Shown here: piece by piece, positions 22,219-34,034 of the stretch | Layout of the letters: each line of letters starts with the position of its first letter | Numbering within the stretch: the stretch's first letter is position 1 | NCBI GenBank assembly: GCA_002842085.1 | Contig: PHCA01000014.1 | Span: 1 to 38,799, forward strand | Reading direction: 5' to 3' | Source of the DNA: Chloroflexi bacterium HGW-Chloroflexi-1 | Lineage (GTDB): Bacteria > Chloroflexota > Anaerolineae > CG2-30-64-16 | Length of the DNA stretch: 38,799 nucleotides | Made by a program: the position numbers and the translations under genes | The notes under the pieces: model-generated | What the model saw: the letters and a program-made list of their open reading frames with translations, nothing else | What the model was told of the DNA's origin: nothing | Database searches by the model: none

Positions 22219-22246
22219 TCAGCATTTGTGGACAGCGGGCTAAATT

Positions 22247-22312
22247 AGCCTTGCGAAGGTTTTTGCCCCGACTTGGGCTAGAAATGGCGTCTTCGGGAAC
22301 CTTCGCAAGGCT
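22247..22312. repeat. 66-bp inverted-repeat element, copy 2
   Basis: Near-identical direct copy of 14529-14594. The inverted repeat extends to TTAG...CTAA here. Confidence 0.9.
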
Positions 22313-22422
22313 AACAATGTGCATCAAGACTCTGCGCAAGAGCGACCGGGGGGTGCGCCGTGGATGGCGCGCCGGCTCCGTCGGGTGCGCCCGCGCGAGG
22401 GTTGGCTGATCCTGGCCCTGGC

Positions 22423-22547
22423 CGTCAACGCTTCAGCACGCCGACCACGCCCGACGCGCCACGCGAAATGAAGACACCTTCCAACTGTGTCAACCGACAA
22501 TGCCAGAAAGCCGCGTACGTGGCGTGGTCGGCGTGCGTGTGTCAGGC
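22423..22547 (-). other. attC-like recombination site of cassette 2
   Basis: Minus strand: GCCTGAC-ACAC-GCACGCCGACCACGCC ... GGCGTGGTCGGCGTGC-TGAAGC-GTTGACG. Contains the stop codon of the DUF2442 gene. Confidence 0.75.
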
Positions 22548-22826
22548 GACGGCTTTCTCTCCCGCTATCGTTTCAGCAAGATGGGTTTCAGAAATGCTGT
22601 CCAGGTATAGTGTATCGGGGCATAAGTCTTGACCGTGTTCCCATTGCACACTGCCTAAGAATGGTTTGACCGAGTTGAAGACGCTCATGCTTTTCAACTC
22701 TCGAAATATCCCTATGTTCAGATAGGGTTTCACATCAAAGCGTTTTACTTCGCCATTGGTGAAAACCAAAGTGATTGTGTAATCGAGATTCGGTTTGACC
22801 ATCTTGACTCGCGGATTCATAAACAT
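22542..22826 (-). CDS. DUF2442 family protein (DhiA-like antitoxin)
   Basis: YTITLVFTNGEVKRFDVKPYL...VQWEHGQDLCPDTLY pattern. Paired with DUF4160. Confidence 0.85.
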   Translation of the reverse strand: MFMNPRVKMVKPNLDYTITLVFTNGEVKRFDVKPYLNIGIFRELKSMSVFNSVKPFLGSVQWEHGQDLCPDTLYLDSISETHLAETIAGEKAVA

Positions 22827-22832
22827 CCCCTC

Positions 22833-23102
22833 CTATCTCAAAGGTTCAATCTTGAAAACGTCTTGCCCGTGGCTGGCAAGTTCCCAGTCTGCCATCAGTT
22901 CATCCTGATGGATTTCAATCCATGCCAAAAGCAATTTCAATCTGTTTGCCTTTAGTTCGCCTTCCAGTATCTCGCCGCTTGGGATAGCGATGACTACCTC
23001 TTGGTCTTGATACTTGACGTGAATATGAGGGAGGTGATGCTTGCGAGTATCAAGGAAGTACATTGAGACGATGATGCCGTAGAACATTGATATGACTGCC
23101 AT
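22833..23102 (-). CDS. DUF4160 family protein (DhiT-like toxin)
   Basis: MAVISMFYGIIVSMYF...HHLPHIHVKY...WIEIHQDELMADW...IEPL. Confidence 0.88.
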   Translation of the reverse strand: MAVISMFYGIIVSMYFLDTRKHHLPHIHVKYQDQEVVIAIPSGEILEGELKANRLKLLLAWIEIHQDELMADWELASHGQDVFKIEPLR

Positions 23103-23166
23103 AGATTCACTGCTCCTTATCATCGCGTCGCTTGTGGTACTGCCGTCCTGTCAAAAAAGTGCTGTC

Positions 23167-23259
23167 GCCTAACGCTACAGCACACCGACAACGGCGGACG
23201 AATTGAAAGCACCTTCGATTGCCAGCCGCCCCGCCGTTGTCGGTGTGCGTGTGTTATCT
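23167..23259 (-). other. attC-like recombination site of cassette 1
   Basis: Minus strand: AGATAAC-ACAC-GCACACCGACAACGGCGG ... CCGCCGTTGTCGGTGTGC-TGTAGC-GTTAGGC. Contains the TAA stop of the antitoxin gene. Confidence 0.8.
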
Positions 23260-23529
23260 GCCGCGCGTCGTCTTTTGTACTCCTGGCCGACGGCGCATCT
23301 CCTCGCTGGAGATACCGCCTTCCGCTCTCTGTCGTGCGCGCGAACGCCCAATCAGCGCGATGAATTGAGGATGGGTGCTGAGCGTTATTGTTTCCAAGTC
23401 TGCGTTTTCAACAGACACTAACGCGGCCATAGGTTTTCCGCGCACAGTCAGTATCACTGGCTCTCTACTCACGTCCCGCGCATACTCAGCGAGCGGAGCA
23501 GTTGCCTGCGCCATTTCAAGTGTTCTCAT
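23254..23529 (-). CDS. Phd/YefM-family antitoxin
   Basis: QATAPLAEYA...EPVILTVRGKPMAALV. Confidence 0.85.
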   Translation of the reverse strand: MRTLEMAQATAPLAEYARDVSREPVILTVRGKPMAALVSVENADLETITLSTHPQFIALIGRSRARQRAEGGISSEEMRRRPGVQKTTRGR

Positions 23530-23826
23530 AGGTCAATCACCTCTCTTCCGATGCGAACCCGATTACCTGCTTTGACTCCAACCGCGCGAATGTAAACCAA
23601 AGGTTCAGGGTCTTCTTCCACGTCCATAGTATACCCGAAGGTTGCCGATACGAAGTTCCCATGGGGCCACTGGGTTAGGGCGCATGACCTTGCGGTTCTT
23701 CGTTTCCACCTTCGGCTGATACATCAATTGATCGTCCACCGCATCCAAGACGATTGCTTGTTGTCGCGCGGTCAGTACGCGCATGTGGTCTTCAGCGTCA
23801 GGAGAATAGTCAATTCGATACAGCAA
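23526..23826 (-). pseudogene. RelE/ParE-family toxin with a +1 frameshift
   Basis: YRIDYSPDA...WELRIGNLRVYY. Removing one G at about 23624 restores DVEEDPEPLVYIRAVGVK...VIDL*, whose TGA overlaps the antitoxin ATG. Confidence 0.8.
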
Positions 23827-23869
23827 TGTACTTGCTCCTCAGTGCAAGACTTGGGGGACAAAAGGGCGT

Positions 23870-23949
23870 GGCAGATAACTTACGTTCCACGACACAAAAC
23901 TGTCGGGATAACACCCTCATGGGTGGTATTACCCGCAAGTTCTGTGTCG
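23870..23949 (-). other. attI-like primary insertion site: core site plus 60-bp hairpin
   Basis: Minus-strand GTTATCTGCC (23879-23870) is the exact complement of the inverse core at 23253-23262. Imperfect hairpin at 23890-23949 just after the recombinase stop. Confidence 0.55.
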
Positions 23950-23983
23950 GGTAACCAACCGGGCGCCACGCGCCCGCCAACTC

Positions 23984-24200
23984 CTACAATTGCATGTTGT
24001 CCAGCGGACTCTTGATCCGCGCCAACGCCGGCTGCGTCACGTGCGTGTAACGCTCGGTCGTCTTGATGCTGTCGTGCCCCAGCAATTCCTGGATGTAACC
24101 GATGTCGGTCCCATCTTCCAGCAAGTGCGTCGCGAACCATGTCCTGGGCGAAGTCGAAGGGAAGTGATGCAGCGTGCCGTCGCCCAGGATACCCGCAAGG
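23984..24200 (-). pseudogene. C-terminal remnant of an integron-integrase-related tyrosine recombinase
   Basis: [33 protein letters not shown]...[10 protein letters not shown]. The HxxR box is degenerate and interrupted by a CCCTTCGACTTCGCCCAGGAC insert. No start codon. Confidence 0.85.
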
Positions 24201-24273
24201 CCGCTGGCTATCAGAGGTCAGCTGGATTATAAGACTTCCGAAGCTAAAAGTCTAGGGTTTGTTGCGCACGAAG

Positions 24274-24495
24274 TCACTTTTCGACGCCCTCGAGGCGCAT
24301 CGCCGGTTGACGACGAACCGGCCGCACGGGCTTGGATGAAGGGGCCATGCGCACGTCGCTGCGTCGTTCTGACTGACGGGTCACGATCTCTTGATACTGC
24401 CGTTCCAGGTTCGTCCGGAATTCCTTTGGCGCCCCCAGCACACGCTCCAATTGCACAGCCATTTCGGGAGTGACGGGCGCCTGGCCCTGGATAAT
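24274..24495 (-). pseudogene. HigA-type antitoxin remnant
   Basis: IQGQAPVTPEMAVQLERVLGAPKEFRTNLERQYQE is the C-terminal half of a HigA HTH. The N-terminus is missing. Confidence 0.7.
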
Positions 24496-24773
24496 CCGCC
24501 GTCAGGTTGTTTGGGTATCGGGTCGTTGGCCGGCTCACAGATCAGCCGATAGGGATGATCCAGGTCGAGCGACAATTGGCCTGCCCGGTTGCCGGTCAAC
24601 TCATGACAGCGCACCTGTGGCAACTTCCTCAAATCCTCCAGCACATTGGCAGCACGCAACTGAATCAGGCGCCGTTGGAGAAGCTGCGCCCGGCGCGGGC
24701 CGTGACGTCTGACCAAGAGTTGCCCGGTATTGAATTCTTTGGCCAGCTTGCTGGTCTGAAAAAGAAGGTCCAC
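24493..24773 (-). pseudogene. HigB-type (RelE-fold) toxin truncated at the C-terminus
   Basis: RCHELTGNRAGQLSLDLDHPYRLICEPANDPIPKQPDGGL, then an out-of-frame fusion to the HigA remnant. Confidence 0.75.
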
Positions 24774-33883: not shown

Positions 33884-33929
33884 GGCGCGCCTCTTGAAGT
33901 CATTCTTGCCCATTAGACCCCCAAATAAT

Positions 33930-34017
33930 GGAACGCGGATGAACGCGGACGACGCGGACTACGCGGACAAAAACAGAAAAATCCGCGTCATCCGCGCTCT
34001 CCGCGTCGTCCGCGTCC
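33930..34017. repeat. Intergenic hairpin built from about 9-bp ACGCGGA units
   Basis: Four ACGCGGA units, an A-rich loop, then four TCCGCG(T) units. Confidence 0.85.
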
Positions 34018-34034
34018 GGTTTTTCGAACGAATG

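Follow-up and report, generated by a model that had tools for sequence, protein, structure and literature searches.

The 38,799-base window analysed here (bases 1-38799 of the 58,959-base contig C81, from a Chloroflexota genome of 4.45 Mb in 419 contigs, labelled G000) contains, with a probability of about two in three, a real, decayed integron-like gene-capture platform of the Chloroflexota, and one of a variant kind. On the minus strand between positions 24214 and 22427 it comprises, in this order, the C-terminal remnant of a tyrosine recombinase related to the integron integrase IntI, an attI-like site with a terminal GTT, and two toxin-antitoxin cassettes, each of which terminates in a hairpin site of the form AAC or GAC, 4 nt, a perfect stem of 16-18 bp, 6 nt and GTT. 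The local platform is dead, because the recombinase has been reduced to about 70 codons; one toxin gene is frameshifted as well, and therefore the array is static unless it is served in trans. Records bearing platforms of the same kind carry the titles Anaerolineae, Anaerolineales and other Chloroflexota.

Both cassettes were recognised by their complementary ends, as a sequence-only reading of the window had described them. Cassette 1 (706 nt, 23173-23878, minus strand) has GTTATCTGCC from 23879, which is complementary in 10 of 10 positions to GGCAGATAAC at 23262-23253; cassette 2 (744 nt, 22429-23172, minus strand) has GTTAGGCGAC from 23173 and GTCGCCTGAC at 22550-22541, complementary in 9 of 10 positions, with AAC changed to GAC. 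In both cassettes the heptamer that follows the upstream GTT matches the reverse-complemented heptamer in front of the AAC box at 7/7. The last gene of each cassette stops within the box, the TAA at 23256-23254 overlapping AAC at 23255-23253 and the TGA at 22544-22542 overlapping GAC at 22543-22541. The attC-like site 1 (23171-23255, minus strand) consists of AAC, ACAC, an 18-bp stem (23180-23197 with 23231-23248, 18/18 paired) around a loop of 33 nt, TGTAGC and GTT, and the attC-like site 2 (22427-22543, minus strand) of the mutated box GAC, ACAC, a 16-bp stem (22436-22451 with 22521-22536, 16/16 paired) around a loop of 69 nt, TGAAGC and GTT. The perfect stems with 4-nt and 6-nt spacers reported before were thus recovered, with zero unpaired bases in either of them. 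Site 2 is followed by GACGGCCAGG.., which is also found after the last site on contig C137.

The hairpin sites form a class that extends beyond the window. A search of the 4.45-Mb genome for the paired-stem pattern gave 3 places, against 0 in the reversed control, which is beyond chance, and the 4-nt/6-nt geometry is shared by nine perfect sites with stems of 16-19 bp. In an unfitted MAFFT alignment of 11 sites (A2), 94.7% of the cells are paired, compared with 33-48% in slid controls, and compensatory changes are seen in 8 of 16 stem pairs. R1, a covariance model of this site class, identified only 10 sites in the genome (two on C81, three on C160, two on C296, and one each on C137, C372 and C328); eight of these are on the four contigs that have an attI-like copy, and lie downstream of this copy in the same orientation. 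The window sites score 92.4 bits (site 1) and 118.5 bits (site 2) on the minus strand and 35.5 and 23.2 bits, respectively, on the plus strand. In general the sites are asymmetric, since they score 90-129 bits on the forward strand versus 22-36 on the reverse, and they keep one orientation throughout an array. The scan of related genomes with a model built from such sites, which had been suggested together with the original description, yielded R1 sites in 18 out of the 151 genomes that had been sampled from the class. Altogether 41 sites (40 distinct, from 25 sources) were aligned to the model (A4), with 94.9% of cells paired, compensatory changes in 12 of 19 pairs and slid controls at 24-50%. 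The sites are conserved in structure rather than in sequence. The longest array, on G078:C22, has nine co-oriented sites, mostly 500-800 bp apart, behind a C-terminal recombinase remnant, a full-length family gene followed by a site is present on G116:C58, and the site motif borders many other genes behind intact family members. Looser AAC...GTT hairpin scans of the genome performed no better than the reversed control; they supplied no counts, only family members picked by eye.

The attI-like site (23877-23958, minus strand) lies between the recombinase stop codon and the first cassette and is made up of two inverted-repeat pairs, GTTACCCGACAC-AGAAC-TTGCGGGTAAT at 23955-23928 and TCCCGACA-GTTT-TGTGTCGTGGA at 23908-23886, followed by the 6 nt ACGTAA and the crossover GTT at 23879-23877. 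The sequence 3' of the stop codon is conserved among the copies on C81, C160, C296 and C137, and the homology stops exactly at the GTT. The same layout was found in other genomes: 28 loci encoding the recombinase family were taken from named Chloroflexota metagenome-assembled genomes (MAGs), the downstream sequence was read in 21, and 16 of these 21 show two inverted-repeat pairs with spacers of 3-6 nt, about 6 nt and GTT, after which the sequences diverge. In the five remaining loci the contig ends, the gene is truncated or the GTT is mutated. The second palindrome together with the 6 nt and GTT has the same geometry as the 3' half of the cassette sites; inspection by eye for co-variation of the attI palindromes with attC stem bases across the loci gave no convincing result. 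In the sequences 5' of the recombinase genes, a promoter-like TTGAC...TATAAT was seen and no conserved boundary of an element. Several platforms can be present per genome, with four in G000 and four in JACQWQ01, and many of the 28 contigs stop within a few hundred bases of the recombinase gene, as at repeats. As a side observation, several platforms share the sequence that follows the last GTT of the array (GACGGYCAGGSCC...): it is found downstream of 22426 on C81, downstream of about 560 on C137, at locus L031, where it directly follows the attI-like site, and in the first cassette on C296. This shared sequence may represent the original right flank of a platform that carries no cassettes, or else a terminal cassette that the platforms have in common.

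Complementarity of cassette ends was measured over 26 consecutive boundaries, each time between the 7 nt that follow an upstream GTT and the reverse-complemented 7 nt that precede the next AAC; two near-identical loci (L027 and L078) are counted twice in this set. At a threshold of at least 6/7, 16 of the 26 boundaries match, compared with 5.1% of 650 non-cognate pairings, and among the boundaries that start at an attI-like site the figure is 7 of 10. Most of the misses are long intervals, which probably contain undetected sites.

Metagenome contigs at 90% identity or more supplied the evidence of cassette movement. The stretch under study is nearly whole in two groundwater runs, which may be its source, and many lake-water runs contain about a tenth of its sampled words. 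In the lake runs X3 and X4 both cassettes are present at 90-99% identity without the flanks and the side of the recombinase remnant, and the depth is maximal on the two hairpin sites. The contig pieces from these runs stop at 23879 and at about 23175, which are the two GTT boundaries, beyond which the contigs continue with dissimilar sequence. One contig of X3 shows a different site of this class, in place of the attI-like site, ahead of cassette 1.

With respect to cargo, cassette 1 encodes a toxin-like open reading frame (ORF; 23826-23605), for which no Pfam family was found at E <= 0.1, and a Phd/YefM-like antitoxin ORF (23529-23254) with a match at E 8e-05 that is under the Pfam cut-off. 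The toxin-like gene carries a +1 frameshift near 23624, because the lake homologues have one base fewer there and the groundwater contigs agree with the window. The downstream frame of this ORF would terminate in an ATGA overlap with the antitoxin start. Cassette 2 encodes DUF4160 (23123-22833; E 5.8e-25, 87.7 bits, cut-off 23) and DUF2442 (22826-22542; E 1.3e-09, 38.5 bits, cut-off 23.9), a pair which we take to be a toxin-antitoxin module. Among 54 cassette ORFs that were submitted out of 93 listed, Pfam matches were obtained for 20, and 14 of these 20 belong to toxin-antitoxin-type families, which include DUF4160, DUF2442, PemK, ParE, PIN, BrnT, DUF433, DUF5615 and RelB-like proteins. The other cargo includes a 1090-aa Eco57I/N6-methylase protein.

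The recombinase remnant (23984-24214, minus strand) represents the C-terminal ~70 codons of an IntI-related tyrosine recombinase of ~380 aa. Its open frame has 77 codons and ends with the stop codon at 23986-23984; the first ~300 codons of the gene are gone and the HxxR region is disturbed. The frame is directed into the array, as had been noticed before, and it matches PF00589 at profile positions 140-169 of 172 (E 4e-07), the profile of its own family at positions 318-382 of 382, and TIGR02249 at positions 265-315. Its nearest kin within the genome are two other remnants, a frameshifted one of about 120-150 codons on C296 and one of 19 codons on C160, and a fourth, even smaller recombinase trace is present on C137. 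The genome also encodes a true IntI at the end of contig C220, with a TIGR02249 score of 490 bits (cut-off 265) and the IntI insertion visible in its translation. The remnant as a copy of this IntI was considered and ruled out, its closest kin being the family remnants on C296 and C160. Directly upstream of the remnant, at 24274-24773 on the minus strand, there are a HigB-like ORF (PF05015, E 1.4e-4, below the cut-off) and a possible HigA-like ORF, which seem frameshifted or overlapping and may mark the event that deleted the first ~300 codons of the recombinase.

In order to characterise the family, the C296 piece was used for a database search, which gave over 100 proteins with identities of 69-100%, the majority of them 376-395 aa long with PF13495 and PF00589. 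Among the 120 matches listed, the source names are tyrosine recombinase, site-specific integrase or XerD and never integron integrase, and the closest relatives carry Chloroflexi or Chloroflexota source labels. For six full-length members TIGR02249 is the best NCBIfam match, with 200-208 bits under the cut-off of 265; the matches to XerA (188-195 bits, cut-off 220), XerD (169-186 bits, cut-off 329.6) and XerC (162-178 bits, cut-off 335) are all below their cut-offs as well and lower than the IntI score. The TIGR02249 match is split into about 2-178 and 233-314 of 315, so that profile positions ~179-232, where the IntI insertion lies, are skipped. Among solved structures the family profile matches best to 2A3V (IntI4 of Vibrio cholerae, VchIntIA) with 151 bits, versus 130-135 bits for Xer proteins. 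Residues 183-237 of 2A3V stand opposite only 13 family-profile residues, about 42 residues being absent at the position of the insertion, and in an alignment with three local IntI proteins the family has a gap of ~40 residues at the same place. The family is accordingly not bona fide IntI, and it groups with IntI and not with Xer-like proteins, in agreement with the IntI sister family that had been proposed from the remnant; the presence of the insertion in intact homologues, which had been named as a point to check, was answered in the negative.

In a tree of 36 rows, a branch with an SH-aLRT support of 100 joins 12 family members, 14 IntI proteins, one IntI fragment and the three proteins L013-L015 against six Xer-like proteins, without a resolved branching order inside the group so joined. 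L013 (G042:C202), L014 and L015 are further insertion-less IntI-like recombinases. The family also has an extra N-terminal part of ~100 aa that is absent from IntI; it is present in L013 (374 aa) and absent from L014 and L015 (~290 aa). No Pfam match was obtained for this part at E <= 10, and its Atlas scores are all below 0.9. In an AlphaFold model (mean pLDDT 78), residues 3-60 are predicted to form a beta-beta-alpha-beta-beta-alpha fold followed by a low-confidence linker, and a Foldseek search with the whole predicted model ranked XerA and IntI4 about equally.

True IntI was detected in 20 of 61 relatives, and the arrays adjoining it there have classical attC sites of the form GCCTAAC...GTTAGGC, whose 5' arm is interrupted by two bulges of one base each. 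The stem of a classical attC site has two or three extrahelical bases; the window sites have none, and the sites of the new class none or one. Classical bulged attC sites are also present in G000 itself, where the contigs matched by R2, a model of 14 classical Chloroflexota attC sites, are disjoint from those matched by R1. Classical arrays amounting to 55.7 kb contain no R1 match at E < 0.1, and R2 matched 0 of the 41 new-class sites at E < 0.1, the sole overlap scoring 13 bits with E 0.49. Both classes have AAC/GTT boxes, a 3' spacer of ~6 nt ending in GC, and a conserved G-A-C in which the A is bulged or paired, and they look related. Of the 17 other genomes with R1 sites, five encode the recombinase family (three full length, one as an N-terminal piece and one as a C-terminal remnant) and eight encode true IntI; these eight include all five with the family and three with IntI alone, while nine genomes show neither.

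From the conserved adjacency of gene, attI-like site and cassettes, we infer that the neighbouring recombinase family would be the catalyst of this system. The anatomy of the platform and the modular build of its cassettes are shown by the data: an intact platform consists of an IntI-like tyrosine recombinase of ~380 aa that lacks the IntI insertion (the I2 region) and has an extra N-terminus of ~100 aa, an attI-like site that follows the stop codon of its gene immediately and comprises two short palindromes, ~6 nt and GTT, and co-oriented cassettes inserted at G|TT. Each cassette ends in a hairpin of the form (A)CG-N4-AAC, 4 nt, a 16-19-bp stem, loop, stem, 6 nt and GTT. In one folded strand, the R-box duplex, the unpaired 4x6-nt spacer and the conserved stem base (GC.C.CCGAC) may mimic a core site, and one strand exchange could suffice for recombination, which is also the route of integrons and of CTX-phage/XerCD integration. 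The loss of the IntI insertion would accompany the loss or reduction of the extrahelical bases. More broadly, and tentatively, these platforms may form a natural lineage whose recombinase is related to IntI but lost I2 or never acquired it, and in which hairpins with 0-1 extrahelical bases, a two-palindrome attI and an N-terminal DNA-binding part replace the recognition by I2. Such a lineage could be a living intermediate on the way from Xer-like recombinases to integrons or an independent solution, and would coexist with classical integrons in the same cells. This wider reading is somewhat less probable than its opposite.

Several points weigh against the interpretation as a non-canonical platform served by this family. 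The recombinases are broken at all four platforms of this genome, and no intact family recombinase was found in the assembly, which is 97.9% complete by markers. The claim that the sites are bulge-free holds for the two in the window and fails for the class, in which a conserved A nine positions into the 5' arm stays unpaired, as the single bulge, in 10 of 40 distinct sites; its position resembles that of one classical extrahelical base. The pair counts of alignment A4 lean toward structure, the 41 sites having been fitted to the model, the tree is a quick maximum-likelihood version with a narrow outgroup of six Xer-like rows, and mobility rests on contigs, among which joints with sides shorter than ~30 nt (22534>23249 and 23263>23862) were not relied on. 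At locus L086 (G088:C21, 1501-2473), a pair of classical bulged attC sites is located ~300-400 bp away from a single new-class site, and all three lie on one strand. The locus is possibly a mixed array, and because it combines both site classes in one orientation, cross-use by IntI is possible. Furthermore, co-occurrence does not discriminate which enzyme serves the sites, because all five genomes with the family also have true IntI and nine genomes have neither, and a true IntI is likewise encoded by the genomes with the most sites; it is the adjacency of gene, attI-like site and cassettes that points to the family as the probable catalyst. The non-canonical cassette system run by an IntI sister family that had been put forward for the window therefore stands with regard to its anatomy and to a recombinase family that is not IntI, and stands less firmly with regard to the enzyme at work, which is deduced from adjacency.

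The presence of a true IntI on C220, well above its cut-off (490 versus 265 bits), raises the question whether the window simply holds ordinary integron cassettes, a CALIN-type cluster moved by the classical IntI of the same genome, with the family as a bystander or an insertion hot spot only. We regard this as unlikely. It would fit with the fact that every family-bearing genome among the 17 has true IntI too, with the two site classes in one orientation at L086, and with the AAC...GTT boxes, the ~6-nt 3' spacer ending in GC and the 5'-arm G-A-C that are common to both classes. However, at many independent loci the sites follow a conserved attI-like site that belongs to the family, with the first cassette complementary to the junction, none of them was found in the 55.7 kb of classical arrays that adjoin true IntI, and the two site populations are on disjoint contigs of this genome. 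The presence of IntI does not explain the sites either, since nine site-bearing genomes show neither enzyme and three have IntI without the family.

It is still less probable that the recombinase and the conserved sequence behind it are the end of an integrative mobile element, with the GTT as the junction between element and chromosome and the hairpins as terminators or REP-like palindromes. The four platform copies each in G000 and JACQWQ01, the many contigs that break just behind the gene as at repeats, and the abundance of other palindromic repeats in the genome would be compatible with such an element. On the contrary, cassette ends are complementary at 16 of 26 boundaries against a background of 5%, up to nine co-oriented sites follow each other at cassette-like spacing, the sites, 10 in 4.45 Mb, are confined to arrays of this type, the cassettes turn up in different surroundings as well, where homology breaks off at GTT, and no conserved element end was seen upstream of the gene. 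An integron-like platform of a variant kind thus remains the preferred interpretation of the window.

Sedentary chromosomal integrons, as far as they are described in the accessible text of the literature consulted, share with this system a tyrosine recombinase adjoining an attI site with the crossover G|TT, small and seemingly promoterless cassettes with complementary GTT.../...AAC boxes and a hairpin end of imperfect sequence and conserved structure, and a cargo rich in toxin-antitoxin genes; an inverted group also has the recombinase co-oriented with the cassettes. The present recombinases differ by lacking the IntI insertion, by scoring below the TIGR02249 cut-off and by their extra N-terminal part, and the present sites by the 4x6-nt spacer and a long stem with 0-1 bulge instead of two or three. 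In classical integrons the folded bottom strand recombines, with replicative resolution; for the present sites the data show a strand asymmetry of the model scores (90-129 versus 22-36 bits). In comparison with the local classical arrays, the R boxes differ between cassettes and are not GCCTAAC/GTTAGGC, and, in comparison with sedentary integrons, several platforms are present per genome.

In the accessible text of Cury et al. 2016 (PMC4889954), IntI is defined by the intI_Cterm profile, and inverted-integrase integrons (Treponema and others) as well as Chloroflexi integrons are reported; co-orientation of recombinase and array alone is already known from there. CALIN, as defined by Cury et al. 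2016 in that text, are clusters of at least two sites that IntegronFinder calls attC, with no IntI within 4 kb; the window likewise has two cassette sites without a functional IntI within 4 kb, and a broken recombinase gene alongside. In contrast to a CALIN, the broken gene is not an intI pseudogene here and an attI-like site is kept. The same text mentions four recombinases without intI_Cterm that were set aside as non-IntI; they lie between IntI and Xer in the tree and near fewer than 3 attC sites. Compared by description alone, these intermediate recombinases share with the present family the missing intI_Cterm, the proximity to cassette sites and the position between IntI and Xer. A full-text literature search retrieved no description of the present recombinase family or site class, and the supplementary figures of Cury 2016 may bear on it.

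According to the accessible text of Escudero et al. 2020 (PMC7790495), integrases innovated toward single-strand recombination by acquiring I2, which recognises attC with the extrahelical bases as landmarks, and Xer proteins are without I2. The action of XerCD on the folded single-stranded attP of CTX phage/IMEX described there (PMC7790495) is a further parallel, as a hairpin imitating a duplex core with an unpaired centre could be the substrate of a recombinase without I2, with one strand exchange only. The XerCD system, as that text presents it, has no cassettes, arrays or dedicated attI beside the recombinase gene, and the recombinases of the present family resemble IntI more closely than they do the Xer-like proteins encoded in their own genomes.

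As genome surveys define integrons by the IntI insertion (Cury 2016, and likewise by an additional domain in the accessible text of Nemergut et al. 2008), an insertion-less family heading cassette arrays would, if confirmed, imply that cassette capture is not strictly I2-dependent or that an intermediate or alternative state exists. In that case the origin of integrons would become testable with natural proteins and sites, cassette reservoirs in groundwater and lake Chloroflexota would be under-counted, and a second structure-specific recombination system might be available for engineering.

Other repeats of the window and the genome were recorded alongside the cassette sites. Rfam gave no matches in the window at gathering thresholds. 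A weak R1 match at 33925-34034 (26 bits) was set aside, as it sits in a different, GACGCGGA-type repeat; this hairpin-forming repeat of GACGCGGA/GACGACGCGGA units is also present on C88 and C273. Between the array and an ABC-transporter gene, a perfect 17-bp inverted repeat, TTAGCCTTGCGAAGGTT...AACCTTCGCAAGGCTAA, lies at 22245-22314. Palindromes of the CCTTGCGAAGGTT type were also found on C207, C264 and C276, and the contig depth in run X1 reaches ~7500 in the 22245-22314 bin; the repeat is probably a genome-wide REP-like repeat outside the cassette system. The palindromic repeat GCTGTGGCCGGTCT..GACCGAGCC...GGCTCGGTC..AGACCGGCCACAGC occurs in or beside cassette arrays and elsewhere (C160:20080-20150, C372:4250-4300, C105, C52 and C356), and a long palindrome, GATCCACGAAGGACACAAAGCACACGAAGA/TCTTGGTGCCCTTCGTGTCCTTCGTGGATC, is present in or beside the arrays of three loci (L032, L033 and L035) from one MAG, JACQWQ01.

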